Below are positions 33,482-48,323 of a stretch of DNA of 64,000 bases, in pieces. Under the pieces are notes generated by a model that did not search any database, had not been told where the DNA came from, and saw nothing but the letters and a program-made list of their open reading frames with translations. The stretch spans positions 7,915 to 71,914 of the forward strand of contig PWEA01000005.1 of assembly GCA_003553905.1 (NCBI GenBank), given 5' to 3'. Position 1 is the first letter of the stretch, and the number at the start of each line of letters is the position of its first letter. This DNA comes from Candidatus Aenigmatarchaeota archaeon. GTDB lineage: Archaea > Aenigmatarchaeota > Aenigmatarchaeia > PWEA01. The position numbers and the translations under genes are program-made.

Positions 33482-33562
33482 AGTATCAGTTTACTTTATT
33501 AGAACTTTACTTAATAAAGTTAGAGGGATACAAAACTTTTAGAAGCTCCTACACAAAAGATA

Positions 33563-33570
33563 AGTATATA
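33563..33570 (+). promoter_or_regulatory. Candidate archaeal TATA box for the ATPase operon (leaderless transcript)
   Basis: AGTATATA lies ~20-25 nt upstream of ATG 33588. The intergenic region is shared with the divergent coiled-coil genes. Confidence 0.3.
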
Positions 33571-33578
33571 CCTGTACT

Positions 33579-35861
33579 GTGGTTCAAATGCCATGTGATT
33601 ACGAATACAACCAAAAGGAAAATAAAATAGAAGTAAACTGCTCTGGATGCATCTACGGAAGTAGTGTAGCTGACTACGAGGAGTGTATGGCGAACACAAT
33701 CGATAAAATTCTTGAAGTAAAAGGAGTAGAATCGATTGTATTCAAAAACAGCCGTGAACACGAGTATCCGTATGAGCAGACAAAGCTCCTTGTAGAGATA
33801 GCCCAGGTTCTTAAGGATCTGACCAAAGACAAGGGTCTAAGGAAACTAAAGAAGCTAGATGTACCGGGCTGCAACAAATATTTCCGGGAAAAATATTCGG
33901 AGCTACAGAATATAATCCTCGAAGAACTGAGCAAGGACCCAATAGGTACGTACATACATCTCAAAAGAAAGATAAGGCATCTCAAGATCCAATTAAAGGA
34001 AAATAAGGGTGGTTCACAGAACGAGTGCAGAGAAAAGTACATGAACAAAATACTTATACCAATAAAGGACGAGATCGAGAACACGGGAATGATACAGGGG
34101 GTTAAAAACCAACTTTCCGGATATCGACCAGGCAGGAGAGACGCCTACAGAGAGCTTTTTTACCCTTCTGTACGACCAAACTTCATGCGGACAAAATACA
34201 TGAGACAAGCCCCCGAAGAAGGTAAGAAGGTAGAACATTATGATGTAGGAACTTCTGATGTAGATATATACAGACTGCCTGAAGAAACCAGGCCTCTATA
34301 CCACTTTTCCCCTCCCGAGTTCAAACTCGAGGAGGAAGAATATAAGATACTAGACGAGGCTCAGAGATATATCAGCGAGCATAGACCCGAAACTACCGAG
34401 TTTGCAGAGTCGAAGAGAACCAGGGAAGTTTTCACATCAATATGCAGGGACCTGGTGAAAGACATAGCGGATAATAAGAAAACTGTACTGGAAACCGATC
34501 AGGTCGAAAGACTCACAACCATACTAGGTAGATATACAGGTGGTTTGGGGATACTTGAAGCACTCCTGGAGGACAAAAGAATCCAAGACATATACATAAA
34601 CTCACCAATAGGAAACAAACCGATCTTCGTCAACCACGAAAAATATGGAGAATGCAAAACAAATATAATACCCACCCAAGACGATGCAGAAAGCTGGGCA
34701 ACAAAACTAAGACTTTCGAGTGGAAGACCATTGGACGAAGCCAATCCGGTTCTTGATGCATCCATAGAGGTACCCGGAGGAAGTGCAAGGATAACGGTCA
34801 TAGCTCCCACGCTTTCACCTGAAGGTATTGGTTTTGCTATAAGAAGACACAGAGAAGATCCATGGACATATCCACTGTACTTGAGACCGGATATAAACTA
34901 TATAAATCCACTTTTTGCAGGTCTCATGAGCTTCATAATCGATGGTGGACGTACGTTCCTCGTTGGGGGTGGAAGGGGTTCTGGAAAAACATCACTTCTC
35001 GGAGCCTCGATGCTTGAAATGAAGAGAGACTGGAGGATACTTACAGCAGAGGATACATTAGAGCTACCAGTCGAAAGGCTCAAAAGGCTTGACTACGATG
35101 CACAGAGATTAAAGTCAAGGTCTGTTATAACCCAGGTAGAAACCGAACTTCCTGCGTCGGAAGCAATACGAACGGCCCTTCGTCTGGGTGATTCAGCACT
35201 AGTTATAGGTGAAGTAAGGAGCACGGAAGCAAAGGCCCTCTACGAAGCCATGCGTATAGGAGCGATGGCTAAAACGGTCGCCGGTACTATACATGGTGAA
35301 TCAGCATACGGTCTTTTCGACCGTGTTGTAAACGACCTCGGAGTCCCAAAGACATCTTTCAAAGCTACAGACATCGTAGTTATATGCAACAGGATAAAGA
35401 GCGCATCCGGTCTCGAGGAAATAAGAAGAGTAACAAGTGTTACTGAAGTAAGAAAACACTGGTCCGATGATCCCAGGGCAGAGGATGGATTTGTTCCTCT
35501 TATGAAATATTCGGCAGAAGATGACGAGTTAAAACCGACCGACACTCTACTAAACGGTGAGTCAGAGGTTCTGAATAAGATATCTTCACAGGTCAAGGAC
35601 TGGGCAGGAAGGTGGGATAGGGTCTGGGAAAATATAGAGCTCAGGGCTAAGGTTAAAAAAGCCATAACCGACTATGCACTCGAAACAGGTGAAGAAGATC
35701 TAATGGAAGCCCCGTTTGTTGTCAAGAGCAACAGCAAGTTCCGCCTTATCATGGACGAGGTAAAAAAGAAGACAGGTTACATAGACCCGGATGAAACCTT
35801 CGATAAGTGGGAACAATGGCTCAAGGATCAGATAAAGACTGGTGAATTTAGGAATGTTTAA
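33579..35861 (+). CDS. Type II/IV secretion-system ATPase (FlaI/TadA/PilB/VirB11 family) with extended N-terminal region
   Basis: Walker A GGGRGSGKTSLLGA, Asp box ILTAEDTLEL, GEVRSTEA and a TIHGE His box. 760 aa from the GTG at 33579; the alternative ATG at 33588 would be leaderless. Confidence 0.8.
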   Translation: MVQMPCDYEYNQKENKIEVNCSGCIYGSSVADYEECMANTIDKILEVKGVESIVFKNSREHEYPYEQTKLLVEIAQVLKDLTKDKGLRKLKKLDVPGCNKYFREKYSELQNIILEELSKDPIGTYIHLKRKIRHLKIQLKENKGGSQNECREKYMNKILIPIKDEIENTGMIQGVKNQLSGYRPGRRDAYRELFYPSVRPNFMRTKYMRQAPEEGKKVEHYDVGTSDVDIYRLPEETRPLYHFSPPEFKLEEEEYKILDEAQRYISEHRPETTEFAESKRTREVFTSICRDLVKDIADNKKTVLETDQVERLTTILGRYTGGLGILEALLEDKRIQDIYINSPIGNKPIFVNHEKYGECKTNIIPTQDDAESWATKLRLSSGRPLDEANPVLDASIEVPGGSARITVIAPTLSPEGIGFAIRRHREDPWTYPLYLRPDINYINPLFAGLMSFIIDGGRTFLVGGGRGSGKTSLLGASMLEMKRDWRILTAEDTLELPVERLKRLDYDAQRLKSRSVITQVETELPASEAIRTALRLGDSALVIGEVRSTEAKALYEAMRIGAMAKTVAGTIHGESAYGLFDRVVNDLGVPKTSFKATDIVVICNRIKSASGLEEIRRVTSVTEVRKHWSDDPRAEDGFVPLMKYSAEDDELKPTDTLLNGESEVLNKISSQVKDWAGRWDRVWENIELRAKVKKAITDYALETGEEDLMEAPFVVKSNSKFRLIMDEVKKKTGYIDPDETFDKWEQWLKDQIKTGEFRNV

Positions 35862-37938
35862 GGGCGATAAGGATGACCGCAAAGAAGAGATAAAAAGACT
35901 TCTGGAAAGAAGAAACGAAGGACTCCGGATGCCCGAAAGCAGAAAAAGAACATTCACATCGAGGGAGTACGAAACATTCTTAAAAGAGGAACAGAAGCAG
36001 AGGAAACTATCACTTTACGAAAAACTATGTAATATTGCCGAAAATATAATAGTCGTAGAGCCGTCCGATGAAAAGAGGGAGGAGATGGAACGGTCAATAG
36101 ATATGACCTACATGAATATAACCCCTGAGGGGGCCTACTCTCTAGCCATTCTGTCCGGTATCGGCATCTTTGTCACTGCGATATTACTTATGGTACTGGG
36201 TCTTGCCTCGATAATATTTGGTCTCCTCATGTTTATACTGGGTGGTGTATCAATATACCTCCTCGCAGAATATCCAAATTCGGAGGCCAGGCTTTTCCGG
36301 GTCAAAGCTGCCGATCAGATTATGCTTGCTGTGATATACATGGTCATATACATGCGTACTTCTCCTAACCTCGAAGGTGCAGTTAAATTCACCGCCAAGC
36401 ATCTAGGAGAGCCCCTTTCACTTGATTTCAAAAAACTGCTCTGGGATGTAGAAACCCGAAACTATGTTTCGATGAGGGAAGCCCTTTCCGCCTACCTGGA
36501 AAAGTGGGAAGACAACAAAACCTTCGTGGAAGCTATACAGATAATAGAAGACTCGATGCAACAAGCCGGAGAAAAAAGAAAAAGAATGCTCAACGAAGCA
36601 ATAAACACGATGATGACAGGCTCAAGAGAGATGATGAAAAACTACTCAAACAAACTCGAACTTCCTATACTCGTAATACACGCCCTCGGTATAATGCTTC
36701 CTATCATGGTTCTGATAATGTTCCCTATAATAATGCTTATGCTTGAAGAAACTATCCGGCCTGCGTTTCTCATTCTGGGCTACAATGTTATACTACCGCT
36801 CATAATATATCTAACAGGAAAAAGAACGCTGGAGTACAGGCCGATGGGATTTTCTGAGCCTGACATATCAAAACATCCGGACCACATTCCCTCTGGAATG
36901 ATAAACATCGCAGGTAAGGAGATAAAGATATGGCCTATATCTGTTCTTCTGTCGGTTCCTGTGATAATTACCGGTATCTATCTGGTTAACTTCTACGCAG
37001 GTACAGATATATCAACTCAGCTCTACACGTCAATAATCATAACCATCGGAATAGCACTGGGTCCTTCGAGCTACTTCTACCTCGACTCCAGCGCTAAGCT
37101 CAAGATAAGGAAGGAGGTGAAGGATATCGAGGATGAATTTTCGGAGTCTCTTTTCTCACTGGGTAATATACTCAAGCTGGGTAAGCCAATGGAGAGGGCC
37201 ATGGAAGAAGCTGCTGTAAAAAATAAGGATATGGACATATCGAAGATGTTCGATATAGTCGTAAACAATATCAAAAAGGGTGGGATGAACATCAGGAAGG
37301 CTTTTTTCGATGATGAATACGGTGCAGTGTGGCATTATCCTTCGACACTCATAATATCCGTCATGAAAATCGTCATAGATGCGACAAAAAAGGGTTCCGA
37401 TATTGTCTCTAGGTCAACTATATCAATATCAAAGTATCTACAACAGCTCGATGAGATAGAAGAAGACCTGAAAAATATGCTCTCTTCGGAGACTACTTCT
37501 ATGCAGTTCCTGGGAACGTTTCTTGGACCCTTTGTGGCAGGTGTTTCTGTGGCCATGGCTGCTATAATGATATCAATATTCCAAGGTGTGGGTGGTTCAT
37601 TGGATGCACTGGCAGGAACCGGAACCTCACCCGGTGTTGGAGGTCTAGGTGGGATGGGACTCAATGAAGGCCTAGTAGGTGGATGGGGTTCAGCAGAAAA
37701 TATGATACCCATATCATGGATACAGGTTGTCGTAGGTCTCTATGCTATCCAGACATCCTACCTTCTTTCTATGCTAACATCCGGCATAGAAAACGGTCCC
37801 GGTGACCAAATAAAGAAAAGACAGTCCGCAGCAATTATGATAATGATAGGTGTAATAGTCTACGGTGTTTCAATTGCTGTGGTTTGGCAAATATTCGGAG
37901 GGCAGATATCTGAACTTCTAGCAGCAACCATAAACTGA
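35842..37938 (+). CDS. FlaJ/TadC-like polytopic membrane platform protein
   Basis: 698 aa. Cytoplasmic helical domains alternate with clusters of TM helices, the two-T2SS_F-domain layout. Overlaps the ATPase by 20 nt, suggesting translational coupling. Confidence 0.7.
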   Translation: MNLGMFKGDKDDRKEEIKRLLERRNEGLRMPESRKRTFTSREYETFLKEEQKQRKLSLYEKLCNIAENIIVVEPSDEKREEMERSIDMTYMNITPEGAYSLAILSGIGIFVTAILLMVLGLASIIFGLLMFILGGVSIYLLAEYPNSEARLFRVKAADQIMLAVIYMVIYMRTSPNLEGAVKFTAKHLGEPLSLDFKKLLWDVETRNYVSMREALSAYLEKWEDNKTFVEAIQIIEDSMQQAGEKRKRMLNEAINTMMTGSREMMKNYSNKLELPILVIHALGIMLPIMVLIMFPIIMLMLEETIRPAFLILGYNVILPLIIYLTGKRTLEYRPMGFSEPDISKHPDHIPSGMINIAGKEIKIWPISVLLSVPVIITGIYLVNFYAGTDISTQLYTSIIITIGIALGPSSYFYLDSSAKLKIRKEVKDIEDEFSESLFSLGNILKLGKPMERAMEEAAVKNKDMDISKMFDIVVNNIKKGGMNIRKAFFDDEYGAVWHYPSTLIISVMKIVIDATKKGSDIVSRSTISISKYLQQLDEIEEDLKNMLSSETTSMQFLGTFLGPFVAGVSVAMAAIMISIFQGVGGSLDALAGTGTSPGVGGLGGMGLNEGLVGGWGSAENMIPISWIQVVVGLYAIQTSYLLSMLTSGIENGPGDQIKKRQSAAIMIMIGVIVYGVSIAVVWQIFGGQISELLAATIN

Positions 37939-37987: not shown

Positions 37988-39286
37988 ATGAAGCCGCTCA
38001 ACGACCAGATAGGAGCTTCAACTCTTATCATGATAATAGCCGGGGTAATAATAATACTCATAGCGGGCAGCTTTGCAACAGTACTGATGAGTCGTATTGC
38101 CCAAGACGTACTTGGACAAAGTGTCATGTGTGATACTTTTTGTTCGATGCAGTCTACTGTTAAAGAAGTGACAACACTGGATATGATACCAAGCCCCGGA
38201 CTTACCGGTACACTTGGTTATATTGCCATAGGGGCTGTAATAGGTTCGGTGGTACCGGGAATAGGAACCGCGATAGGAGCAGCGATAGGAGCAATTGTTG
38301 GAGTTGCTATAGCCGCAGTACAACATTTTGCAAGCTGGCTGGGAAGAGATGATGAAGATGTTGCAAGAGATCTGGCAATAGACTACTTGGTTCGCCCCGA
38401 AGGCATGGGTTGTTACTGTGGCGTGTCCAATGCCAGAGGAAAGTATATACACTTTCTGACACCCGGTCCTAGCTCAACCAGGCCACATGTGGCCGAGTTC
38501 CATCTAACAGACCAAACTCCGGAAAAACATCTCCAAGAAGAGATAATAGATACAGATGGAAACACTATATTCAAACACGGTGGTTATGGCCAAAAAAGTA
38601 ACTGTGAAGATGAACTTAGTAAAATAGATGAACTTGACAACGGTGAATACTTAGTCGAACTCGATATATATCCAGGGTGCATAATACTATCAACGACCGA
38701 TGACAACTGTGCAATATGGGCATTCAATGAAACCTTTGCAATAACCAATGAAGAAGGAAAGTCCATAAGGGAACAGGCTGAAGAACAGGATAAAATAATA
38801 TTCGCTAGCACGATAAGGTCCGATGACCCCGTAAACAGCCTGGGTATCGCAGAAGAGATAGAGGCAAGTGGCAGACACGAGTCCCAGAGGATGCTCCTCG
38901 AGCATTACGAAGAAGGTATACACCCATTCCAAGTTCACGTCCCTGTAGTTTGTAAATCTGAAGAAAGAACTGAAAGGCGTGTCCAGGATCCACTTGACAG
39001 GGCATGTAGAGAACAGTGCCATGACGGAAACGCACTTCTATGGGCTTCTAGGTGTTTCGAAGAACCAGAAGATGCCGGGGAAACCTACTATTCACTGGAA
39101 GAAGATTTTCTTCCAGAAGAATATGATGACACCAGAGACTTATGCCCTATGGAAGACGAAGACAACGGAGATGAAGACGGGGGGGAAGATGAAAACAACA
39201 ACGAAGATCGCGGTTATCCCTTCTGTCTCTGTAACACTCCTCGAAGTTATTCATGGGAACTGGACGAAGAATACGCAGAAATATAA
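37988..39286 (+). CDS. Pilin-like protein with Cys-rich acidic extracellular domain (family 1, paralog A)
   Basis: N-terminal hydrophobic helix. Motifs shared with family-1 paralogs: C.TFCSMQ, GMGCYCGV, YIHF, HLTDQTP, DGNTIF, SQRMLL, VVCKS, CREQC, LCP, PFCLC, SWELDEEY. An extra Gly-zipper hydrophobic segment (GAVIGSVVPGIGTAIGAAIGAIVGVAIAAV) is unique to this copy. Confidence 0.65.
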   Translation: MKPLNDQIGASTLIMIIAGVIIILIAGSFATVLMSRIAQDVLGQSVMCDTFCSMQSTVKEVTTLDMIPSPGLTGTLGYIAIGAVIGSVVPGIGTAIGAAIGAIVGVAIAAVQHFASWLGRDDEDVARDLAIDYLVRPEGMGCYCGVSNARGKYIHFLTPGPSSTRPHVAEFHLTDQTPEKHLQEEIIDTDGNTIFKHGGYGQKSNCEDELSKIDELDNGEYLVELDIYPGCIILSTTDDNCAIWAFNETFAITNEEGKSIREQAEEQDKIIFASTIRSDDPVNSLGIAEEIEASGRHESQRMLLEHYEEGIHPFQVHVPVVCKSEERTERRVQDPLDRACREQCHDGNALLWASRCFEEPEDAGETYYSLEEDFLPEEYDDTRDLCPMEDEDNGDEDGGEDENNNEDRGYPFCLCNTPRSYSWELDEEYAEI

Positions 39287-39307
39287 TATCTTGAATTTGT
39301 GATGTAA

Positions 39308-40408
39308 ATGATTGACGAAAAAGGTGGTTCCTTATTACTCATAATAGTTGTAGGTATAATATTATCCCTGATCGTTGGTTCTTTGATGACCGGTGCATTT
39401 AGTGTGGTGGTGAGAACCGTAATCGGAACCGACCTGTCGTGTCCTACATTCTGTGCAGTTCAAGCAGACATAGAGGAGTATAGCATGGCAGATATAATGC
39501 TACCATCGATTCTACCATTCATAGAGGAAAGCTCTGAGGCAACGGCTCATAAAATAGCAGACTGGATAATACAACCGGAAGGGCTTGGCTGTTACTGCGG
39601 CGTCAAAGCAAGAAGTGGAAGATACATCCACTTCCATACAGGTTCACCTGGAGAAAGGTACATAAGAGAGCTTCACTTGACGGACCAAGATCCACATATA
39701 CATCTAGACTATCATGTCAGTGATTCCGATGGAAACACGTTGTTCGACCACAGCTTCGACAAGAGCAGCTGTGAGGAAGACATAAGTAACATAGAAGAAG
39801 TACAGTACTATCAAACCGTTGGCTGTGTAATCGTGGTTAACTCCGAGGGAGGGTACTGCTCTATACATGTAATAGGAGAAGGTTCAGTTATAGAAAACAA
39901 CATAGGTGAAAGCATACACGATCAGGTTGAAATAAAGGAAACATTGACGACAAACTATGAAGACAACGATCCCATTTCATTTTTTAAAATCGGCGACAGA
40001 TACAGCGTACCTCGATTTGCATACGGGACAGGAGATGTCCTGACCTACACGATAGGAACCCAGCCCTACCAGCACGATTCCCAACGAATGCTCCTCCGGG
40101 ACTACGACGAATACCTAGGAGCTAAGTTCGCTCTCTATGCTCCTGTTGTCTGTAGGGCATCAACAAGAGAAGGACAAGATACTCAGACAGAACTCGATGA
40201 AAAATGTAGAAAGCAATGTAAGGAAGACGATAAGATTTTCTTCTCTTCTGCATGCCAAGATATCCCCAGGGAAGGTTATGACATGCTACGTGACGAATAC
40301 CGCGAAGACACTCTCTGTGAAAAGGATGACGAGGGCCCATACTGCAGATGTGTGCACGAGAAACGATACTACTGGGAGGTAGACGAAGATTATTCGAGAG
40401 AAGAATGA
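39308..40408 (+). CDS. Class III signal-peptide (type IV pilin-like) protein with Cys-rich domain (family 1, paralog B)
   Basis: MIDEKG then GSLLLIIVVGIILSLIVGSL. Shared motifs SCPTFCAVQADIEEYS, GLGCYCGV, YIHF, HLTDQDP, DGNTLF, SQRMLL, VVCRAS, CRKQC, LCEK, PYCRC, YYWEVDEDY. Confidence 0.7.
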   Translation: MIDEKGGSLLLIIVVGIILSLIVGSLMTGAFSVVVRTVIGTDLSCPTFCAVQADIEEYSMADIMLPSILPFIEESSEATAHKIADWIIQPEGLGCYCGVKARSGRYIHFHTGSPGERYIRELHLTDQDPHIHLDYHVSDSDGNTLFDHSFDKSSCEEDISNIEEVQYYQTVGCVIVVNSEGGYCSIHVIGEGSVIENNIGESIHDQVEIKETLTTNYEDNDPISFFKIGDRYSVPRFAYGTGDVLTYTIGTQPYQHDSQRMLLRDYDEYLGAKFALYAPVVCRASTREGQDTQTELDEKCRKQCKEDDKIFFSSACQDIPREGYDMLRDEYREDTLCEKDDEGPYCRCVHEKRYYWEVDEDYSREE

Positions 40409-40447
40409 AAAAGTTAAAAACTAAACGAAAACCTATTAAATGATAAT

Positions 40448-40561
40448 ATGGAAGTAAGTATGTCTGTCTTGCTCTGGGTGATTGTAGCCTTTGCTCTGTT
40501 TGTATTTGTAGTAATATTTACCGGTATGTTTTTCGCCGACACGTTTGGAATTTTAATATAA
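40448..40561 (+). CDS. Possible 37-aa hydrophobic micro-protein
   Basis: MEVSMSVLLWVIVAFALFVFVVIFTGMFFADTFGILI is a single TM helix lying between two pilin genes, below the ORF-track cut-off. Confidence 0.2.
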   Translation: MEVSMSVLLWVIVAFALFVFVVIFTGMFFADTFGILI

Positions 40562-40572
40562 TCAAGGATACT

Positions 40573-41850
40573 ATGATCGATCAAAAGGGAGCATCAGTAA
40601 AGGCACTCTTCGTAATCATAATTGTAATGGTGGGTGCATGGGTTTTAATACAAAGTATTGGTCCTATAACCAAAGCTGCCATGGGAACCGAAGTATCCTG
40701 TCCGCTTTTCTGTGATATACAGTCAGGTATAGAAGACTACTCGAGATGGGCATGGTGGCCGGGGTGGCTTGGAGGAAGTGTAAGCTGGTCCGATATATTC
40801 AAAAATGAACTAAGAAGAAACATGGTAGCACCTAAATCAATGGGATGTTACTGTGGTGTACAGGAAGAAAGAGGAAAGTTTATCCATTTCCAGGGGAGTA
40901 CCAGTAGTATACGCGAATTCCACATGACGAATCAGGATCCATTGGTACATCTTAGCCTTGAGGCCGGTCCATTTGACCACAGGCCTACTTCATCGCAAAT
41001 TCGTAATATGTGTCGATCCATCATAGAAGATTACGGAGAAGAGTTCAGTCCACCTGTATACGATCAAAGCGATCTCAATAGAGTTCAAGCATGCATGATT
41101 GTTTCAGAATCACCGGGTTGTGCAATATGGAGATTTGAAGAGGGTTTTGTCATTAGGAGAGACTCTGATGATTCTATATGGGAACAGGCACAGGAACAGG
41201 GAAAAGACATAGGCTTTTTTTCCTTTAATAGAGACGAAGACCCTGTTTCGGATCTAAGCATAGGTGAAACTGTGTATGTATCGGGATCAAAGGACCCCTC
41301 CCAACGGATGTTACTCCAAAAATACGAAAGCGGCGATCAAGATTTCAATCTCTCTGCATCCGTGGTATGTAAAAGTGTTAGAATGGATGAATCTATGCCC
41401 ACAAACGAACTAGACAGGGCTTGCAACGAATACTGCTCGGATGAAAATCTTTTCTTCATGAATTCTAACTGCCTAGAGGAGAGGAGAGGTGGTTATGATA
41501 TCCTTCCAGAAGAATACATAGAAAATGGGAGGGATAAACTCTGCCCTGAAGGAAGAGAACTTCCCTTCTGTCTCTGTGCAGGAGAAAAGGACTACTACTG
41601 GGAAACATACTGGGAAGATTTCTACACAGTAACGGTAGAAACCCAAGGTAGTGGAAATGTGGACATAAGCCCCGACCTGGACGAGTATCACGAAGATCAG
41701 GAAGTATCATTGGAAGCAGAAGCGTACAACGATTGGGAATTTAGCCATTGGGAAGGAGATCATCCACATGGACAAAAAGAAGATGCAGAGATAACGATCA
41801 CGGTAGATGGAGATATGGAAGTAACTGCAGTATTCGAATCGACATCATAG
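40573..41850 (+). CDS. Class III signal-peptide protein with Cys-rich domain (family 1, paralog C) and C-terminal InlB B-repeat-like domain
   Basis: MIDQKG then ASVKALFVIIIVMVGAWVLI. Shared motifs SCPLFCDIQSGIEDYS, MGCYCGV, FIHF, HMTNQDP, SQRMLL, VVCKS, CNEYC, LCPEG, PFCLC, YYWE. C-terminus YTVTVETQGSGNVDISPDLDEYHEDQEVSLEAEAYNDWEFSHWEGD..ITITVDGDMEVTAVFE fits the divergent InlB B-repeat pattern. Confidence 0.7.
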   Translation: MIDQKGASVKALFVIIIVMVGAWVLIQSIGPITKAAMGTEVSCPLFCDIQSGIEDYSRWAWWPGWLGGSVSWSDIFKNELRRNMVAPKSMGCYCGVQEERGKFIHFQGSTSSIREFHMTNQDPLVHLSLEAGPFDHRPTSSQIRNMCRSIIEDYGEEFSPPVYDQSDLNRVQACMIVSESPGCAIWRFEEGFVIRRDSDDSIWEQAQEQGKDIGFFSFNRDEDPVSDLSIGETVYVSGSKDPSQRMLLQKYESGDQDFNLSASVVCKSVRMDESMPTNELDRACNEYCSDENLFFMNSNCLEERRGGYDILPEEYIENGRDKLCPEGRELPFCLCAGEKDYYWETYWEDFYTVTVETQGSGNVDISPDLDEYHEDQEVSLEAEAYNDWEFSHWEGDHPHGQKEDAEITITVDGDMEVTAVFESTS

Positions 41851-41910
41851 GACAGGTCGTGGATTAAAACTTATAATACGCGGTAAACATACATAATAGG
41901 GAGATGTTCC

Positions 41911-42093
41911 ATGAATACGGATTCAAAAAGCCTCTTTTCCAGAGGTGAAATAAGTATACAGGCCCTGGTAGTGATAATTCTAATGTTGATAGGGATCATA
42001 ATCATTGTTATAATATCATCGGGCGTCGGTGACTTTGGAGGAGATGCGTCTTCGACTATAATGGAATATTTAGCAGATGCTATAGGTGCATAA
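41911..42093 (+). CDS. Short pilin-like protein (60 aa)
   Basis: SLFSRG then EISIQALVVIILMLIGIIIIVI. Almost entirely the signal/helix segment, so a candidate structural pilin. Confidence 0.5.
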   Translation: MNTDSKSLFSRGEISIQALVVIILMLIGIIIIVIISSGVGDFGGDASSTIMEYLADAIGA

Positions 42094-42097
42094 AGTT

Positions 42098-42250
42098 ATG
42101 GTACATAATAAAAAGGGGTTCATAAGTTTCGCTATGATTGTGATCATAGTTCTTATAGCTCTAACGGTCGGTATTCTGCTTATACACACCTTTTGGGGAG
42201 GCGGTGAAGGATTGTTAAACCTACTCATCCAAAGGCTTCAACAGGTATAG
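42098..42250 (+). CDS. Short class III signal-peptide pilin (50 aa, not in ORF track)
   Basis: MVHNKKG then FISFAMIVIIVLIALTVGILLIHTFWGGGEGLLNLLIQRLQQV. Textbook archaeal prepilin N-terminus. ATG at 42098, TAG at 42248..42250. Confidence 0.5.
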   Translation: MVHNKKGFISFAMIVIIVLIALTVGILLIHTFWGGGEGLLNLLIQRLQQV

Positions 42251-42259
42251 GTATAAAAT

Positions 42260-42406
42260 ATGTCTACATTTAGCGACACATTAACTGTTTTCGAAAACAA
42301 TACAAAGATAATATTTGCCTTAGTGGTGTTTGCTCTGCTTATAGGCATACTTTACTACACGATAGGTCCTATAATAGATACATTACTGGGGGCTATAGGT
42401 TATTGA
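42260..42406 (+). CDS. Small membrane protein (48 aa, not in ORF track)
   Basis: MSTFSDTLTVFENNTKIIFALVVFALLIGILYYTIGPIIDTLLGAIGY. Single TM helix, no KG cleavage motif. Confidence 0.35.
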   Translation: MSTFSDTLTVFENNTKIIFALVVFALLIGILYYTIGPIIDTLLGAIGY

Positions 42407-42407
42407 T

Positions 42408-43124
42408 ATGAACGTAATCAACAAAAAAGGTTCAAGATCACAGAGTGAGTTCATATTTCTTGCAATAAAGGCAGTGATAGGTATCTTGGTTATAGGAATT
42501 GTTGCCTTGAGTGTTAGGGGCATGGAAACAGGCTGCAGTACACATGACGAAAATCCAACGGCATGTATAAGAAATACCGAATGCAGGCCTGCAGTTAGAA
42601 GAAAGAGAAACATATTCACGTTCTATATTGATCCTGCTCGTACCATAGACCTAATCTACCATACAAAAATAACCGGTGATATAGAATGCCGAGACGCGAT
42701 AAGGACTCCTAACAACAGATACCACGCCGCAGAGGATGCTCAGTGTGTATGTCCTGTTGGATGGGAAGTAATTTTAGACAAGGATGATCAGTACTACGGA
42801 GTCTGCAGACTACCAGGAACTAACGACTATCACCCATGCGAGTATCCACCAGACGGCGAACAGCAAGAAGCAGAATTCAAAGACATGTGTGAAGATGGAG
42901 ACAGATACCACGGAGAAGTCTGGATCGACGGAACAGATGAGGAAGCTCCAAATATGTGCTGCGATGATGGAGATACAAAGGAATGTGACTCCGATAACAT
43001 AGACGAAGAATGTGGCGATTTGGTTTGTATTGAAATAGAGGTCGAGGACGAAGACGGAGAAGAGGAAGAAACCACTTTCTGGATAGAAGAAGAAAGCGTA
43101 CCTGATATAGAATACTTCCTTTAA
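42408..43124 (+). CDS. Class III signal-peptide protein with Cys-rich acidic domain (family 2, paralog A)
   Basis: MNVINKKG then SRSQSEFIFLAIKAVIGILVIGIVAL. Shared with the next gene: ETGCSTHDENPTACIRNTECRPAV, GDIECRDAIRTPNNRYHAAEDAQCVCPVGWE, YYGVC, YHGEVWIDG..MCCDDGDTKECD. Confidence 0.7.
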   Translation: MNVINKKGSRSQSEFIFLAIKAVIGILVIGIVALSVRGMETGCSTHDENPTACIRNTECRPAVRRKRNIFTFYIDPARTIDLIYHTKITGDIECRDAIRTPNNRYHAAEDAQCVCPVGWEVILDKDDQYYGVCRLPGTNDYHPCEYPPDGEQQEAEFKDMCEDGDRYHGEVWIDGTDEEAPNMCCDDGDTKECDSDNIDEECGDLVCIEIEVEDEDGEEEETTFWIEEESVPDIEYFL

Positions 43125-43151
43125 AATACACAAAATAAAAGATGAAGCGGA

Positions 43152-43802
43152 ATGTTTTCAAAAAAAGGTACTGCTAAATCGCAGGAAGAAACACTTTGGT
43201 TTATAATCAAGATAGCTATAATGTTGATAGGAATGGTAGTTTTGATTGTTTCTTTACTCGAGATGGAGGCAGGCTGCAGTAGACACGATGAAAATCCATC
43301 GGCATGTGTAAGCGATGAAAACTGCAGACCCGCAGTTAAAACATTTGACCTAGGATGGGGTTTATATGGTTTCTCTCAAATCGAAGTAGTGGGTGAGATC
43401 GAATGCCGGGAATCTGTGAGAAAACCCAATACAAGATATCATGCAGCCCAAGATGGAAAATGCGTATGCCCTGGTTTCTGGAACGAAATCATGGACAGGG
43501 ACCATGACTACTTTGGTGTGTGTTATACTGAATATGACGGAGAAGAAATGTACTATCCATGCCAGTACGGCCTGGATGTTCAGGCTGAGGAAATAAAAGA
43601 CAGATGCGATACCGACAACGGTCTTAGAATGCACGGAGAAGTATGGGGCTCCGGTTGGAATGTTCCAGATAGATGCTGCGACGATGGTGAAGTAAAGAAA
43701 TGTGGGATAGATAAAAGAGGTGAAACTTGTGCAGACCATACCTGTAAATCCGGTCCAGCAATGCATGATGTTGTTATAGTCAACTACTATTGGCAGCCAT
43801 AA
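43152..43802 (+). CDS. Class III signal-peptide protein with Cys-rich domain (family 2, paralog B)
   Basis: MFSKKG then TAKSQEETLWFIIKIAIMLIGMVVLIV. EAGCSRHDENPSACVSDENCRPAV, GEIECRESVRKPNTRYHAAQDGKCVCPGFWNE, YFGVC, MHGEVWGSG..RCCDDGEVKKCG. Confidence 0.7.
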   Translation: MFSKKGTAKSQEETLWFIIKIAIMLIGMVVLIVSLLEMEAGCSRHDENPSACVSDENCRPAVKTFDLGWGLYGFSQIEVVGEIECRESVRKPNTRYHAAQDGKCVCPGFWNEIMDRDHDYFGVCYTEYDGEEMYYPCQYGLDVQAEEIKDRCDTDNGLRMHGEVWGSGWNVPDRCCDDGEVKKCGIDKRGETCADHTCKSGPAMHDVVIVNYYWQP

Positions 43803-43847
43803 ACCACATTTACACCTTTCAAAAAGATTTAAACGAACACGACAAAG

Positions 43848-44270
43848 TTGTATATGATGAACACCCCAGCAAAGGGCATAGGCGTAGGAAAGTCTCTTAT
43901 GTTAATATTGATACTGGTAGTACTCATATTTACAACGGTCGTAATAGGTGACATCTTTACATCTGTTCTTGGTATGGGTATAGGAGATGAGTTCCACCTC
44001 ACAATGGGTGAGTTGTCTGTATCCTACACTACATCTAGCTCTTTTCAGGAAAAAACAGAAATAGAAGAAAATCTTCCGATGGCCTGCGAAAGAGTTGTAT
44101 TTAGAAACAACACACTAAAGGCTTATCTAGAACATGATGAATTCTACTTCGTTTCCTACACTACACAGGAAATGGATGAAGATTTCGAGGTAGAATGTGA
44201 TTCCTTTGGTGGGGTGAAGTTTATTGACGGGAGGATTGAAGCCTCTAGCCCGGTTGATGGAACATTGTGA
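43848..44270 (+). CDS. Class III signal-peptide (pilin-like) protein
   Basis: MNTPAKG then IGVGKSLMLILILVVLIFTTVVIG. 140 aa. Confidence 0.6.
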   Translation: MYMMNTPAKGIGVGKSLMLILILVVLIFTTVVIGDIFTSVLGMGIGDEFHLTMGELSVSYTTSSSFQEKTEIEENLPMACERVVFRNNTLKAYLEHDEFYFVSYTTQEMDEDFEVECDSFGGVKFIDGRIEASSPVDGTL

Positions 44271-45169
44271 TTATGATGACAAGGATAGATAACAAAGGAA
44301 CAACCGGAGGAGACTATATATGGTATATACTATTTGTGATAGTAACAATAACCTATCTATATGCCTTTTACGCAATATTCATGGCCGGTTCAACAGTAGA
44401 TGTTGAGGGAATTGAAAGAACTCAAGGAAGACTACAGGGTTCTGCTGCTTATACAAGATTGTTATCATATCCCAACTTCGTCTCGACGGGAGAGATCGGT
44501 GTATTCGATAAATCATCTCTCGATTCGAAGAACGGTACAGAGAAGCTAGAGGAACTCTACAACCCATCACTCTGGATTTATATTGAGATAGAAAACACCG
44601 AAAATGATGATAAGTATATATTCGGTACACCAGGACCAAAGAAGGCAACCGAAGAATGGATAGCTGAGGACGGGTATATGAGTACCTGGGACGATGAAGA
44701 TGAAATGAGCTTTTGGGATCATATGTCCGCCAAATATAGTACAATGGTAAACATAGACACCGGCGACGGCTTCGATCTAGCTAAACTACATTTTTACTTC
44801 CGACAAATACCCGATCCTGTATTGAGCCTGAAAAGGGGTGCCCATATAGCCAAGGAGGAAGGAAGCCATACAGTCACATTGTTTCACCCAACGTCAGGCT
44901 GTAAAATTTATGCACAAGATAGATATGGGAGAGCTCAGTGTTTCGTCCGCGAAGATCCTTTTGTAATAGATACAAGTCAATCTGATAAAATAAAGGACGA
45001 CTTCGGTGAATACATGCATCTGAAAGGCATAGAACTGAAGGCATTCGACGATGATGAGGAAGAGTTCGAGATAGACCCGCCCGGTAGGTTTACAGAAGGA
45101 AAGACGAGGTTAGAACTAGCCCACACCGGCGGCAAAACGGTAGAGTATGAAATAGTCGATAGTTGGTAA
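44267..45169 (+). CDS. Class III signal-peptide (pilin-like) protein
   Basis: MTRIDNKG then TTGGDYIWYILFVIVTITYLYAFYAIFMAG. 300-aa acidic globular domain. 4-nt overlap with the upstream gene. Confidence 0.6.
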   Translation: MIMMTRIDNKGTTGGDYIWYILFVIVTITYLYAFYAIFMAGSTVDVEGIERTQGRLQGSAAYTRLLSYPNFVSTGEIGVFDKSSLDSKNGTEKLEELYNPSLWIYIEIENTENDDKYIFGTPGPKKATEEWIAEDGYMSTWDDEDEMSFWDHMSAKYSTMVNIDTGDGFDLAKLHFYFRQIPDPVLSLKRGAHIAKEEGSHTVTLFHPTSGCKIYAQDRYGRAQCFVREDPFVIDTSQSDKIKDDFGEYMHLKGIELKAFDDDEEEFEIDPPGRFTEGKTRLELAHTGGKTVEYEIVDSW

Positions 45170-45170
45170 A

Positions 45171-45701
45171 ATGAAAAAAAGAATCGGTAAAAAGGGTGGC
45201 TTTATGATCTTGCTAGCTACGCTTATATTCACCGCCGTGTTCTTAATTACTTTGTTTATAGTCGGTCCCTTCGTTGGAGGAGCACAGATGGAAATAGAGG
45301 TAATGTCAGAAGACCCTGCCAGATTCAGTATAGAGAAAAATACGCTTCTAAGAACCAATGAAACAAAAAGAAAACTCATGGCTTTCGGAGAAGGAGACGG
45401 GTCGGTAGACGAATCTATCGCCAAGACAAGCGACAAATTTGGAGAAGCTGATTCGGGCTCTCATATACTGCTTTTCCAGTTCGAAGGGGACGATGACATA
45501 GAAAGGGTGGGTTTCCTTTGTTTAGACGACTGCGGGCATATAAGTGGATATGATGAAGAGTTTAAAGCAATTCTACAAAATTCAAAAGTAATAGCACCTA
45601 GACCCATAATGCTCCCGGAAGGTGGAATGGGATCCTCATATTCGATCTATTATGATCCAGATGAAGTCGCATCAGATATTATGGACGGTGTGATGTACTG
45701 A
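45171..45701 (+). CDS. Class III signal-peptide (pilin-like) protein
   Basis: MKKRIGKKG then GFMILLATLIFTAVFLITLFIVG. 176 aa. Confidence 0.6.
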   Translation: MKKRIGKKGGFMILLATLIFTAVFLITLFIVGPFVGGAQMEIEVMSEDPARFSIEKNTLLRTNETKRKLMAFGEGDGSVDESIAKTSDKFGEADSGSHILLFQFEGDDDIERVGFLCLDDCGHISGYDEEFKAILQNSKVIAPRPIMLPEGGMGSSYSIYYDPDEVASDIMDGVMY

Positions 45702-45708
45702 TGATAAA

Positions 45709-46272
45709 ATGTTAGGAGATAAAGGAATAAAGGTTACGATTGTGGTCTTAGCAGCCGTACTGATAGCCATCTCTCTGGCAACTACAGTAATTGTAGGAGT
45801 ACTATCATACCAAGGTCAGGAGCAGTCCTGGTTCGGGCAGAGTGAAAGAGTTACAGCAAAGGTTCAGTTTGACCATGCTCTGGAAGCTATAGAAGATTCG
45901 TTTTTGTTAGGTATATACTGGGGTATACGGGAATCAGGTAGCGACTGGGAAGACGCAAGTGAATCCCTTGAAGAAGAAATAGAGGAGAAAATAGATGATT
46001 ATCTGACTAAGTTAGAGGGTTTCTACAGAGGCGAATACGATACGCAACCGTTCCGACTCGAAACGATGATACAGATAAATGACGTCGATATAGAAGTAGA
46101 TTTGGATGAGGACGAGGAAACCATAGATAGGGTAGAATTATCAGGTAATCTGACTTCTTACAGGAACCAGCCCTCGATAACAATATCCGATGATTTCTAC
46201 TTCAGTGAAAACTTTAACGAAGACTATTCAGACCTCTATGACATGGCTCGTAATCCATTAGAAAATATGTAA
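45709..46272 (+). CDS. Class III signal-peptide (pilin-like) protein
   Basis: MLGDKG then IKVTIVVLAAVLIAISLATTVIVGV. 187 aa, acidic. Confidence 0.6.
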   Translation: MLGDKGIKVTIVVLAAVLIAISLATTVIVGVLSYQGQEQSWFGQSERVTAKVQFDHALEAIEDSFLLGIYWGIRESGSDWEDASESLEEEIEEKIDDYLTKLEGFYRGEYDTQPFRLETMIQINDVDIEVDLDEDEETIDRVELSGNLTSYRNQPSITISDDFYFSENFNEDYSDLYDMARNPLENM

Positions 46273-46301
46273 ATTTTATAAGAAAGGGGGAGATATTTAA
46301 C

Positions 46302-47288
46302 ATGAAGATGAATCAAAAGGGATCCAAGTCTATGATGGCTTTAGTAGTTCTTATAATTCTAGGTGTTTTGGTAATATTTGTTTTTTCCACAACATCGGGA
46401 TCTTTTTTGGAGATTTCAGAAGGTCTTATGGACATAGGCGAGGAGGAGGCAAGAAGGGTTCATAGGAAGTTCAAATACCCTATTTTAAAACACGAGCTCC
46501 CGGAAGAAGAATTTCCCGGAGAGGGGTCAGGACGGATTGTGACCTCATGTAAATCAATAGGTTCAGAAGGTGAATATCAGCTCCAAGACTCTATAAGATG
46601 TTCAGATCACGAACCAATCCGAGAGTTCAGCGGGACGCTGGACGGTCGTGGTCACAGTATATATGGTTTAGATGAGCCACTATTTGAAACGATATCTTCC
46701 TCGGGAACCGTAAAAAATATTAGAATCTCGGAAGTAGATATATTTGAGGAAGGTCCTGCAGGTGGTCTTTCTGTAGAAAACCAAGGAACCATCAAAAGAA
46801 TCCGTATTTCCGGGATGGTTCAAGGCGAAAGTAACGTTGGCGGTCTTGTTGGAACAAACAGTGGAGAGATACGGAAATCTTCCTCCACGGCAAATGTAGA
46901 TGGAGATCAAAATGTAGGAGTACTGGTAGGACAACATACCTCCGGTTCCGTAACAAATTCTTACACGGTCGGCTCTGTAGAAGGTATATCAAATGTAGGG
47001 GGACTAATAGGATCAGGAAGTGGACAGGTAGATAAAACATACGCAGCTAGTTTTGTAACCGGACTCACAAACAAACAAGGCTTGGTCGGTTCCGGTTCTG
47101 CTGGGGCAGTGACAAACTCCTTCTGGAGTACTGACACATCCGGAATTCTTCCTGGAGATATCTCTGGAAGTGTTATAGGAACACCGAAAGTTGACGAAGC
47201 CATGGAAGACAAGGCAACATTTGTTTCCACAAGAACGGAAGGCCTCGTAGATCCCTGGGACTTCGATGAAATATGGACTATGGGATAA
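46302..47288 (+). CDS. Class III signal-peptide protein with GLUG-like repeat domain
   Basis: MKMNQKG then SKSMMALVVLIILGVLVIFVF. Central repeats NVGGLVGTNSGEI..NVGVLVGQHTSGSVTNSYTVGSVEGISNVGGLIGSGSGQV..GLVGSGSAGAVTNSFW fit the GLUG motif (GGLVG.N.G.I.NSYATG.V.G). Confidence 0.65.
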   Translation: MKMNQKGSKSMMALVVLIILGVLVIFVFSTTSGSFLEISEGLMDIGEEEARRVHRKFKYPILKHELPEEEFPGEGSGRIVTSCKSIGSEGEYQLQDSIRCSDHEPIREFSGTLDGRGHSIYGLDEPLFETISSSGTVKNIRISEVDIFEEGPAGGLSVENQGTIKRIRISGMVQGESNVGGLVGTNSGEIRKSSSTANVDGDQNVGVLVGQHTSGSVTNSYTVGSVEGISNVGGLIGSGSGQVDKTYAASFVTGLTNKQGLVGSGSAGAVTNSFWSTDTSGILPGDISGSVIGTPKVDEAMEDKATFVSTRTEGLVDPWDFDEIWTMG

Positions 47289-47290
47289 AA

Positions 47291-47452
47291 ATGAACTACG
47301 CTCTTCGAACCAGAGGACTACAGTTTAATATCCTTGTTTATATAATACTTGGAATACTTTTGATAGGTGTGATTGCTGCTCTTGCCCTGACTACAGAGGG
47401 GCTCTTCGAAGGATTTTTTGACCTAATGAAAGAACTGATACTTTCAGGGTGA
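47291..47452 (+). CDS. Short class III signal-peptide pilin (53 aa, not in ORF track)
   Basis: MNYALRTRG then LQFNILVYIILGILLIGVIAALAL. ATG 47291, TGA 47450..47452. Confidence 0.45.
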   Translation: MNYALRTRGLQFNILVYIILGILLIGVIAALALTTEGLFEGFFDLMKELILSG

Positions 47453-47497
47453 GGACAGACCGTAAGTTTTAAATCCAATAGGTAACAACCTTTAACC

Positions 47498-47755
47498 ATG
47501 AAAATCAAGTCCGGGAAGAGATTAAAGCCTCTACATCTCGGAGCTCTGGTTTTGAGTTTGATAGTGATCCTATCCATCATAGTTTTTAGTCTGGACGTAA
47601 CAGAAGGACCAGGTGAGGAAGATGAGATGGGCAGGTCTTGTGTAGGATACCTACAGAGGAATTGTTGCAGTAACCCCGGAGCAGTTCGATGCCAAGAATT
47701 CGAAAACGAAATATGGACACACCAAGAAGATCCATTTGATGTATGTTGTGAATAA
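47498..47755 (+). CDS. Small TM-anchored Cys-rich protein (family 3)
   Basis: N-terminal helix LHLGALVLSLIVILSIIVF, then SCVGYLQRNCCSNPGAVRCQEFE..DVCCE, a C..CC..C..CC pattern shared with the next gene. Confidence 0.5.
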   Translation: MKIKSGKRLKPLHLGALVLSLIVILSIIVFSLDVTEGPGEEDEMGRSCVGYLQRNCCSNPGAVRCQEFENEIWTHQEDPFDVCCE

Positions 47756-47758
47756 ACT

Positions 47759-48070
47759 ATGTTAAGTAAAAAGGGTATGGACGCGATAAGAATAATAAGG
47801 GTATTTATAATAACATTACTCATTCTCTTTGCTCTTCTTGCCCTCTGGGTAGGCACAGGAGATGCAGGTCTAACGGAAATAGAGTTCGATGGAAAGATGA
47901 GGATAGCCTGTAATAGATTTGAAAACAGGGGTTGTTGTAGAAGCTACGACGAAGAAGATCCCGGACAGTGTGCTGTAGATAAGGTATGGGAAGGCTACGA
48001 CGAAGAAGAAATGGACGAAGAGCTTATAGAAAGGCTGGAAGAAGTCGATTGGGAACAAAGGTGTTGTTGA
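47759..48070 (+). CDS. Class III signal-peptide Cys-rich small protein (family 3)
   Basis: MLSKKG then MDAIRIIRVFIITLLILFALLAL. IACNRFENRGCCRSYDEEDPGQCAVD..EQRCC. Confidence 0.55.
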   Translation: MLSKKGMDAIRIIRVFIITLLILFALLALWVGTGDAGLTEIEFDGKMRIACNRFENRGCCRSYDEEDPGQCAVDKVWEGYDEEEMDEELIERLEEVDWEQRCC

Positions 48071-48071
48071 A

Positions 48072-48323
48072 ATGAAAGAAAAGGGTATATCGCTTGCGAT
48101 AAGGACCGTTGTAATCTTGATTATCTCTATACTCATACTACTTGCAGTTATCACCATGTTTACAGATGTATGGGATGTAAGTCCCTTTGAAGACACTAAA
48201 GGAAATATTTCCGAGGAATACGGACCGGATTGGGGTAATGGGGAAGAAAATGGCCAAGAAAGTTACAATACCTTTTCTTTAAGCAGTCTATCCGAAACCA
48301 CACATTCACTGTCTAGTCTTTAA
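48072..48323 (+). CDS. Class III signal-peptide (pilin-like) protein
   Basis: MKEKG then ISLAIRTVVILIISILILLAVITMF. 83 aa, S-rich tail. Confidence 0.55.
   Translation: MKEKGISLAIRTVVILIISILILLAVITMFTDVWDVSPFEDTKGNISEEYGPDWGNGEENGQESYNTFSLSSLSETTHSLSSL

Follow-up and report, generated by a model that had tools for sequence, protein, structure and literature searches.

A probable type IV filament locus with a long run of class III-signal genes in a DPANN archaeon close to Aenigmatarchaeota

We analysed a 64-kb stretch of archaeal DNA from contig PWEA01000005.1 (the whole of it, 64,000 nucleotides, is called the window below), and in particular a type IV filament-like locus on its plus strand between positions 33588 and 48323. 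The open reading frame (ORF) map resolves this segment into one compact same-strand array in which every intergenic gap is at most 60 nt. The array contains a secretion ATPase gene, an overlapping platform gene and 18 downstream ORFs, that is 17 ORFs of 48-432 amino acids (aa) and one conserved micro-ORF of 37 aa (40448-40561). The locus is real, with ORFs and coordinates as given in the original prediction, which had been made from the DNA letters without database searches. It had counted 18 or more consecutive genes with class III (prepilin-type) signals; the run of 18 ORFs stands, but the canonical motif is present in 14 of them only. The array and its two borders are as follows (in site notations, the slash stands directly after the glycine).

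33482-33587, no strand, divergent intergenic region between a pair of coiled-coil protein genes and the ATPase gene
33588-35861, plus strand, predicted type IV filament assembly ATPase, 757 aa (Pfam T2SSE, NCBIfam and PDB matches)
35854-37938, plus strand, polytopic TadC/FlaJ-like (T2SSF) platform protein, 694 aa (assigned from the T2SSF matches of its orthologs)
37988-39286, plus strand, family A paralog, 432 aa, 14 Cys, atypical x-G site (QIG/A)
39308-40408, plus strand, family A paralog, 366 aa, 14 Cys, class III-type motif
40448-40561, plus strand, micro-ORF, 37 aa, single helix (MEVSMSVLLWVIVAFALFVFVVIFTGMFFADTFGILI), between the second and third family A genes, without K/R-G
40573-41850, plus strand, family A paralog, 425 aa, 14 Cys, C-terminal InlB B-repeat domain (Flg_new_2, 7e-9)
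41911-42093, plus strand, tiny gene, 60 aa, RG/KG leader, helix and tail
42086-42250, plus strand, tiny gene, 54 aa, RG/KG leader, helix and tail
42260-42406, plus strand, tiny gene, 48 aa, without K/R-G, helix and tail
42408-43802, plus strand, family B, two paralogs of 238 and 216 aa, KG leader, 14 Cys each, very acidic
43848-44270, plus strand, KG-leader protein, 140 aa, candidate minor pilin
44267-45169, plus strand, KG-leader protein, 300 aa, candidate minor pilin
45171-45701, plus strand, KG-leader protein, 176 aa, candidate minor pilin
45709-46272, plus strand, KG-leader protein, 187 aa, candidate minor pilin
46302-47288, plus strand, KG-leader protein, 328 aa, GLUG / IgA1-protease-N-terminal type repeats, candidate adhesin
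47273-47452, plus strand, small gene, 59 aa, RG leader
47498-47755, plus strand, small gene, 85 aa, atypical x-G site (HLG/A), 6 Cys
47759-48070, plus strand, small gene, 103 aa, KG leader, 6 Cys
48072-48323, plus strand, small gene, 83 aa, KG leader, last of the array
48539-49669, minus strand, pyridoxal phosphate (PLP) enzyme gene, first gene past the end of the array

Two starts can be read for each of the machine genes. The lengths first proposed for the translationally coupled pair, 760 aa for the ATPase and 698 aa for the platform, are correct from GTG codons at 33579 and 35842, and ATG codons at 33588 and 35854 give 757 and 694 aa. The public call of the ATPase gene, which is 100% identical, uses the ATG at 33588 (757 aa). 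An exact look-up found the 694-aa platform form on record and returned no record of the 698-aa form. Depending on the start, the platform gene overlaps the ATPase stop by 20 nt (GTG) or 8 nt (ATG). Direct reading of the intergenic region revealed an A+T-rich, TATA-like element (gtatatac) at about 33564-33571. It stands approximately 20 nt ahead of the ATG at 33588, a spacing that would suggest a leaderless transcript. Scans for sigma-70 promoters and terminators gave chance-level signals only, the models being bacterial and inapplicable to archaea.

By its sequence relationships, the ATPase is a secretion ATPase of the T2SSE/VirB11 superfamily. Its T2SSE core lies at residues ~290-650 (Pfam, 1e-15) and is flanked by two family-specific extensions, one N-terminal (~290 aa) and one C-terminal (~110 aa). 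The best NCBIfam matches are FlaI (2e-40) and TadA (1e-32), both far under their equivalog cut-offs (for FlaI, 139 bits against 550). There are also weak matches to BasE (1.4e-14, 54 bits) and ComGA (3e-9), and a match to the TrbB family; the VirB11 equivalog model reaches 59.5 bits against a cut-off of 250. Comparison with solved structures ranked GspE2 of A. fulgidus first (2OAP, 3.8e-27), followed by CpaF of the Tad pilus (8e-21) and FlaI (1e-16), with weaker matches to VirB11 (1e-7) and PilT (3e-5). As GspE2, CpaF and FlaI are far ahead of VirB11, the enzyme does not group with conjugation systems. Among 21 homologs there is no variation in the Walker A motif (GGRGSGKTS), the acidic boxes or the His box (AGTIHG), and proteins at least 52% identical over the full length (~750 aa) occur in many metagenome-assembled genomes (MAGs) of Aenigmatarchaeota and Nanohaloarchaea. 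A profile of the N-terminal domain retrieved no relative from the PDB, apart from a lone marginal match to a subtilisin prodomain that is probably spurious. Several ATPase orthologs are interrupted by inteins (Intein_splicing plus LAGLIDADG_3; P0060, P0088, P0089, P0094 and L009:6165-9980, with products of 912-1271 aa; L-numbers denote the related loci compared), which fits a highly conserved and probably important gene.

The platform protein belongs, on the evidence of its orthologs, to the T2SSF (TadC/FlaJ-like) family, as had been proposed. Pfam T2SSF is matched by 18 of 30 full-length orthologs (best 3.2e-10), which are 32-72% identical to the window copy. The window copy itself gave a weak Pfam match to Spore_III_AB (0.0038, residues 150-294), and a profile search of the platform against the PDB was negative. 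Relatives are present in at least 556 GTDB species genomes of Aenigmat-, Nano-, Woese-, Parv-, Iain- and Micrarchaeota and of Nanohaloarchaea. The nearest named relatives of both the ATPase and the platform are Aenigmatarchaeota MAGs, and an identical protein sequence is present in NCBI GCA_022257665.1. The host is thus, as judged from these relationships, a DPANN archaeon close to Aenigmatarchaeota, in line with the small-genome archaeon first envisaged.

Downstream of the platform gene, 14 of the 18 products show [KR]-G (K-G in 12, R-G in two) followed by a ~20-residue hydrophobic helix, with a basic leader of 3-15 residues and the helix starting 0-9 residues past the glycine. At motif level, these products therefore have the make-up of class III-signal proteins (short basic leader, [KR]-[GA] site, ~20-residue helix). 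The claim that each product begins in this way was slightly overstated, since two ORFs are atypical and two are without the motif. We also applied a strict pattern that requires [KR]G among the first 28 aa and, within 9 residues, a stretch of 16 uncharged residues whose mean hydropathy is 2.0 or more. It is matched by 12 of 17 locus ORFs, against 4 of ~320 other window ORFs of at least 45 aa; three of these four are themselves plausible pilins. The enrichment extends to related loci, of which 89 entered our surveys of downstream motifs and upstream genes. There, 204 of the 452 N-terminally anchored ORFs that follow the platform gene have [KR]G immediately ahead of the helix, compared with 22 of 320 control ORFs. 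Position -2 is K in 92% of these cases, and the Met often lies two or three residues upstream, leaving very short leaders. Moreover, K-G and long hydrophobic N-termini recur in loci of Nanohaloarchaea and other Aenigmatarchaeota whose downstream proteins are otherwise unrelated, which is the signature to be expected from a processing site rather than from a plain membrane anchor. The class III signals predicted from this motif thus find support both in the window and in its relatives. The number of candidate pilins had been called unusually high; with 12 strict matches the locus is indeed at the top of the range, but it is not exceptional for this clade, as up to 11 are found in relatives, about a dozen of which have 7-11.

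Further candidates lie outside the array. A 228-aa product at 8297-8983 (plus strand) starts MKKG/ISTSVLLAV and is class III-like. Two tandem genes on the minus strand resemble classical short pilins.

60017-60343 and 60398-60733, minus strand, two tandem short pilin candidates of 108 and 111 aa, KG/ISLPINMLVILAVAVIVLLA and KG/VTLPINMLVILAVAVIVLLA, with 8-9 Cys

They share a near-identical N-terminus, KG/[IV][ST]LPINMLVILAVAVIVLLA. Their sole Pilin_N match is sub-threshold (0.074), and a PDB sequence search with one of them returned nothing. They could be major pilins of the same machine.

The downstream ORFs are real genes under purifying selection. In comparison with locus L090, which has the same gene order and an ATPase 85% identical to ours, the ratio of nonsynonymous to synonymous substitution rates (dN/dS) is 0.10-0.30 for 14 pilin-like genes, even for the ORFs of 48-60 aa. 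They evolve fast: their products are 29-36% identical to those of L004 or undetectable there, versus 80% for the ATPase. Family A (dN/dS 0.16-0.21 against L090) has 12 of its 14 Cys invariant, a C-x3-C after the N-terminal helix, and GCYCGV and SQRMLL motifs. It is lineage-restricted, since only three proteins came up in a word search and 27 representatives in an exhaustive profile search of 1.84 billion proteins. In loci without the coiled-coil and five-transmembrane genes described below, the first genes after the platform encode proteins of 63-76 aa with one transmembrane (TM) helix (L007:14687-15178, L013:12271-12610, L015:6804-6998, L017:2551-2742, L018:12298-12766 and L057:12365-12562). 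These have a C-x3-C with an aromatic residue at the third intervening position (C-x-x-[WYF]-C), as well as G-F-C-G-C at the C-terminus, and a hidden Markov model (HMM) built from them matches the N-terminal 55-70 residues of family A (E ~3e-5 to 6e-4, in a small database). The similarity points to family A as an expanded form of this Cys4 module.

The two family B paralogs are 44% identical to each other (dN/dS 0.14-0.18), and dN/dS is 0.10-0.20 for the genes of 140, 300, 176 and 187 aa (43848-46272). Among all downstream genes, the one for the 300-aa protein (44267-45169) is the most widely conserved, with matches in 10 related loci. The micro-ORF is 27/37 identical in L090, where it is called inside a 68-aa gene. 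The order of the tiny genes of 60, 54 and 48 aa is kept in L004 and L090 (dN/dS 0.17-0.30); their products consist of a hydrophobic helix, a Gly-rich turn and a short amphipathic tail, have no globular domain and match no Pfam family. This architecture is found in four products of 54-60 aa, and those of 60 and 54 aa are candidate Flp/Epd-like filament subunits. The 328-aa protein matches Peptidase_M26_N and Glug (both 1e-6, Pfam), with weak NCBIfam matches to ZmpA/B.

Most globular domains of the products had been described as acidic and Cys-rich. The acidity is borne out by a median isoelectric point (pI) of 4.31, versus 5.03 for 53 other window proteins (Mann-Whitney p = 2e-4). Seven of the 17 are rich in Cys, five of them having 14 and the other two 6, and the remainder are not; the number of Cys per protein is even. 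The InlB B-repeat and GLUG/M26_N domains, the even Cys counts and the acidity all point to extracellular, adhesin-type products.

Taken together, we consider that the locus encodes a type IV filament machine, similar to archaeal type IV pili (T4P), of a DPANN archaeon, with a probability of about three in four. In this model, the ~16 downstream products that enter the membrane through an N-terminal hydrophobic helix would have their basic leader of 3-15 residues cut after [KR]-G by an unlinked A24 peptidase of the PibD/FlaK type. The ATPase, presumably a hexamer, would then work on the TadC/FlaJ-like platform, extracting the mature subunits and polymerising them into a surface filament. The shaft could be built from the helix-only proteins of 54-60 aa and/or the two unlinked pilins of ~110 aa, and the larger acidic proteins, which comprise the Cys-rich families and the proteins with InlB-repeat or GLUG domains, would act as minor or tip pilins carrying adhesive domains for a surface or a host cell. 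What the data show is the family membership of the ATPase and, by way of orthologs, of the platform, together with the motif, its enrichment and conservation, the purifying selection and the synteny. Leader cleavage, filament formation, the identity of the major subunit, the adhesive or host-contact role and the part played by the upstream proteins are predictions made from sequence.

Several results weigh against this interpretation. Pfam and NCBIfam scans placed none of the 18 products in an established pilin, archaellin or Flp family. No pilin fold could be shown, since the AlphaFold2 models were too poor: that of the family A protein 39308-40408 (5-sequence alignment) had a mean predicted local distance difference test score (pLDDT) of 38.5, and that of the five-transmembrane paralog 30610-31107, based on the four window paralogs, had 51.8, and both were unusable. 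Four of the 18 ORFs deviate from the canonical motif (x-G at 37988 and 47498, none at 42260 and 40448), many products have charged residues 3-9 residues past the glycine, and the +1 residue is highly variable. The window copy of the platform stays under every T2SSF threshold in Pfam and NCBIfam, and the internal duplication of T2SSF, assessed by aligning its N-terminal and C-terminal halves with hhalign, was not significant (E = 0.068). Finally, TM and Pfam scans and tblastn revealed no A24 prepilin peptidase in the 64-kb window; the tblastn search, run with two Aenigmatarchaeota A24 peptidases, produced no match. Two multi-TM window proteins were considered as peptidase candidates and rejected, one being a rhomboid and the other a SpoIIM protein (Pfam). 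Two Aenigmatarchaeota MAGs do have a Peptidase_A24 gene with D...GDGD motifs no more than about 2 kb from the platform gene (L045:2495-3223 and L050:7062-7880, both on the minus strand). In most other related loci the peptidase is unlinked.

The same chemistry could build a different structure, namely a short pseudopilus or bindosome-like layer displaying large class III proteins instead of a long adhesive pilus. In favour of such a layer, 10 of the 18 products are longer than 140 aa and five are longer than 300 aa, large sizes for subunits of a shaft, the ATPase has its weak BasE match, and a 2026 bioRxiv survey proposes that class III-signal binding proteins "functionalise" archaeal type IV filament (TFF) machines. 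Among known systems, the Sulfolobus bindosome (Bas) and other class III-signal surface proteins are similar in that large non-pilin proteins with a class III signal depend on a T4P-like ATPase and platform. We nonetheless find this unlikely: the 54 bits of BasE are far under the FlaI, TadA and GspE2-type matches, the products contain no solute-binding domains or other substrate-binding-protein families (Pfam), unlike the bindosome, and the helix-only small subunits typical of Epd/Tad shafts are present.

A filament used mainly for competence-type uptake of DNA or nucleotides, feeding the nucleotide salvage of an auxotrophic DPANN cell, is quite improbable in our view. It has been speculated that DPANN pili import DNA (PMC9563170), the window holds AMP salvage genes (form III RuBisCO, AMP-phosphorylase-type and IF-2B-family), and the ATPase matches ComGA weakly. 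However, Pfam scans of the array detected no ComEC, ComEA, DprA or nuclease genes, the ComGA match of the ATPase is far weaker than those to FlaI, TadA and GspE2, and the adhesin-type domains indicate binding to surfaces or cells. The N-termini might also be plain, uncleaved signal anchors of unrelated tethered surface proteins that merely adjoin the ATPase and platform genes. The missing pilin family or fold, the lack of a peptidase within the window and the atypical N-termini of some products would agree with this, but a plain anchor needs positive charge and not an invariant glycine, K-G directly before the helix is ~6-fold more frequent than in control ORFs and kept across phyla, and the tight ATPase/platform operon is conserved; we thus see only a slim chance that it is correct. 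A degenerate archaellum or a conjugation/type IV secretion system is extremely improbable: the top NCBIfam name (FlaI) and the VirB11 and TrbB matches would favour it, but against it stand a FlaI score far under its cut-off, VirB11 structures at 1e-7 versus 4e-27 for GspE2, and the fact that FlaH/KaiC, archaellins (PF01917), FlaF/FlaG, VirB4, VirD4, relaxase and competence genes are all missing among the families listed in Pfam scans of the locus and window genes (one list giving 25 of 45 families). The type IV filament machine therefore remains our preferred interpretation, and the original preference for a pilus over an archaellum, which had been based on the absence of FlaH, FlaG/F and archaellin-like genes, is upheld.

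The system extends upstream of position 33482, where a pair of coiled-coil proteins (CCPs) and four paralogs with five predicted TM segments (5-TM proteins) are encoded in an arrangement that is syntenic across DPANN.

29479-30033, plus strand, membrane protein of 184 aa with a basic coiled-coil tail, first of the upstream membrane array (membership tentative)
30049-30528, plus strand, predicted 5-TM paralog, 159 aa (BLASTP paralogy)
30610-31107, plus strand, predicted 5-TM paralog, 165 aa (BLASTP paralogy)
31159-31653, plus strand, predicted 5-TM paralog, 164 aa (BLASTP paralogy)
31666-32268, plus strand, predicted 5-TM paralog, 200 aa (BLASTP paralogy)
32280-33074, minus strand, CCP of 264 aa with an N-terminal three-helix domain, an acidic linker and a C-terminal coiled coil
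33080-33481, minus strand, second CCP, 133 aa, with weak coiled-coil type Pfam matches only

The CCP pair is located directly upstream of the ATPase gene and divergent from it in 44 of 62 related loci. The 264-aa protein, which has homologs in L003, L006, L008 and L009, matches RecX_HTH1 (5e-6) and, weakly, many coiled-coil families (Pfam), and has no TM segment. The 133-aa protein is 56% identical to its counterpart in L003 and 30% to that in the Nanohaloarchaea locus L008. A cytoplasmic role of the CCPs seems more likely, as no signal peptide or TM segment is predicted. The four 5-TM proteins are paralogous (BLASTP 1e-5 to 1e-19) and 69-76% identical to those of L004, versus 80% for the ATPase. 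Of 49 related loci, 32 have homologs on the same strand upstream of the ATPase gene, mostly as 3-4 copies, and these are always accompanied by the CCP pair. The family has no relative in Pfam (35 members scanned) or, by profile search, in the PDB. A GDG motif in two paralogs led us to consider them as divergent GxGD peptidases, an idea that was rejected as the motif is not kept in the family. The 184-aa protein has a syntenic ortholog in L003 (60% identity), matches no Pfam family and has relatives in 32 of the 89 related loci (iterated HMM). The CCPs and 5-TM proteins are probable scaffold components, in the cytoplasm and the membrane, that would surround the ATPase and platform.

The segment between a DUF357 gene and this membrane array (28069-29433) is variable; it holds coiled-coil-like genes of 109 and 338 aa that have no counterpart in L003 or L004. 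In the close relative L092, genes of 47, 293, 150 and 401 aa occupy the equivalent place (L092:3140-5931).

DPANN archaea are obligate or near-obligate symbionts, and a T4P-like machine is among the few surface systems conserved across their phyla. Two conserved loci of cluster-2 DPANN, encoding coiled-coil proteins, a CpaF-like ATPase and TadC, are described by Hamm et al. (2024, Nat Commun, PMC11291902) for Nanohaloarchaeota, Woesearchaeota, Pacearchaeota, Nanoarchaeota, Aenigmarchaeota and Undinarchaeota. In that study, the locus proteins were detected by proteomics in Ca. Nanohaloarchaeum antarcticus and the coiled-coil proteins are read as resembling viral attachment proteins. Our locus corresponds to this type: as there, two adjacent CCP genes (32280-33481, minus strand) lie beside a CpaF-like ATPase and TadC gene, here as in the 44 of 62 related loci, and its nearest relatives are Aenigmatarchaeota. 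Unlike in the main text of that paper, where they are not described, it has a run of class III-signal genes and tandem 5-TM paralogs. DPANN islands in which ATPase and TadC genes are followed by unrecognisable signal-peptide genes, predicted to be diverse pilins, were reported by Makarova, Wolf and Koonin (2019, PMC6393860, Fig. 2A); that general statement comes with example loci, whereas the specific families of our locus (A, B and the small Cys-rich proteins) have a lineage-restricted distribution. Nanohaloarchaeota and Undinarchaeota have also been reported to carry Tad-like clusters that lack annotated pilins (PMC9563170).

Comparison with better known systems reveals both likenesses and differences. 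Like the Epd pilus of Methanococcus maripaludis (archaeal TFF system 1) and the bacterial Tad/Flp pili, the locus is a large operon with many candidate minor pilins, products of 54-60 aa that recall Epd/Flp shaft pilins without a globular domain, and an ATPase related to CpaF/TadA. The 2026 bioRxiv survey describes such helix-only Epd shaft pilins, and also extra ATPase domains as typical of non-rotary systems. Epd and Tad loci, however, have two platform genes (TadB and TadC in Tad) and a cluster peptidase, whereas we found one fused platform of ~700 aa, no peptidase nearby, no match to an Flp or Epd pilin family, and an ATPase with the ~290-aa and ~110-aa extensions. The archaellum shares the homologous ATPase and platform and the class III signals on its subunits, and differs by its FlaH, FlaF/G, FlaC/D/E/X and archaellins, none of which was found here. 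Similarly, conjugative type IV secretion systems differ by their VirB4/VirD4, relaxase and VirB11 equivalog. Episymbiotic Saccharibacteria of the candidate phyla radiation (CPR), which are ultrasmall obligate symbionts, are reported to keep T4P for host attachment and motility (PMC9894109 and PMC11623550). Their machinery is that of bacterial type IVa pili, without locus-level homology to ours; the likeness is a functional analogy, and a similar role in this archaeon would be hypothetical.

We conclude that the locus is a well-developed member of a published DPANN kind and not a new system. The tandem 5-TM set, the lineage-specific Cys-rich families and the mosaic divergence presented below are not described in the texts compared here. 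The locus offers an unusually complete parts list within one operon, with the ATPase, the platform, ~16 candidate substrates with the K-G motif and adhesin-type domains. The CCP pair and the tandem predicted 5-TM paralogs constitute two conserved accessory sets that can be tested as machine parts. In addition, the combination of a K-G motif and helix-only mini-proteins could serve as a simple annotation rule for "hypothetical" DPANN pilins.

The divergence of the locus is mosaic. We compared the pilin block of the window (37988-47452) and other genes with L090/L092 (ENA ERZ27265998, k141_392685) by identity at four-fold degenerate sites.

Pilin block: four-fold site identity 0.66 (628/947)
ATPase, platform and CCPs: 0.44 (270/620)
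5-TM paralogs: 0.39
Diphthine synthase and neighbour: 0.32-0.36

The gap between the pilin block and the core is highly significant (Fisher p = 7e-19), and identity within the block peaks beside the platform gene (0.80) and falls towards the distal end. This pattern suggests that the pilin block may have been exchanged more recently, through recombination or horizontal transfer, between two deeply diverged lineages. Alternatively, codon-usage constraint could account for the high identity of the block. If the exchange is true, it would tie surface-protein cassettes to host range. A second "young" patch is present at 27284-27955, where the DUF357 gene and a 119-aa gene have four-fold identities of 0.68-0.92.

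It is tempting to go one step further, although we regard the following idea as rather doubtful. A DPANN-specific module might assemble a host-contact or host-penetrating apparatus and not only an adhesive pilus. It would consist of the ATPase, whose 290-aa N-terminal domain is peculiar to this family, the two CCPs, the 3-5 predicted 5-TM paralogs and the fast-diversifying, disulfide-rich class III proteins. The 5-TM paralogs would then represent a new core membrane class, and the pilin/adhesin cassette would be swapped horizontally to track hosts. The latter proposal comes from the 66% four-fold identity in the pilin block versus 44% in the core for the same two genomes.

Elsewhere, the window is unremarkable archaeal chromosome, with diphthamide synthase, aspartyl-tRNA-synthetase-type, RNase HII and FEN1-type genes. 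Rfam and tRNA scans of the window found a single tRNA-Met, distant from the locus, and nothing else. Genes for the RuBisCO large subunit, an IF-2B-family protein (ribose-1,5-bisphosphate isomerase type) and a nucleoside/AMP phosphorylase-type protein (Pfam) are among those at ~55681-59556 on the plus strand, the coordinates being assigned from protein lengths only. Together they make up the archaeal AMP salvage pathway, which is typical of DPANN. On the minus strand, 24922-26403 encodes a 493-aa protein with a Sec-type signal-like N-terminus and without a Pfam family; its position is kept in L001, L003 and L092, with only 53% identity to the L092 copy.

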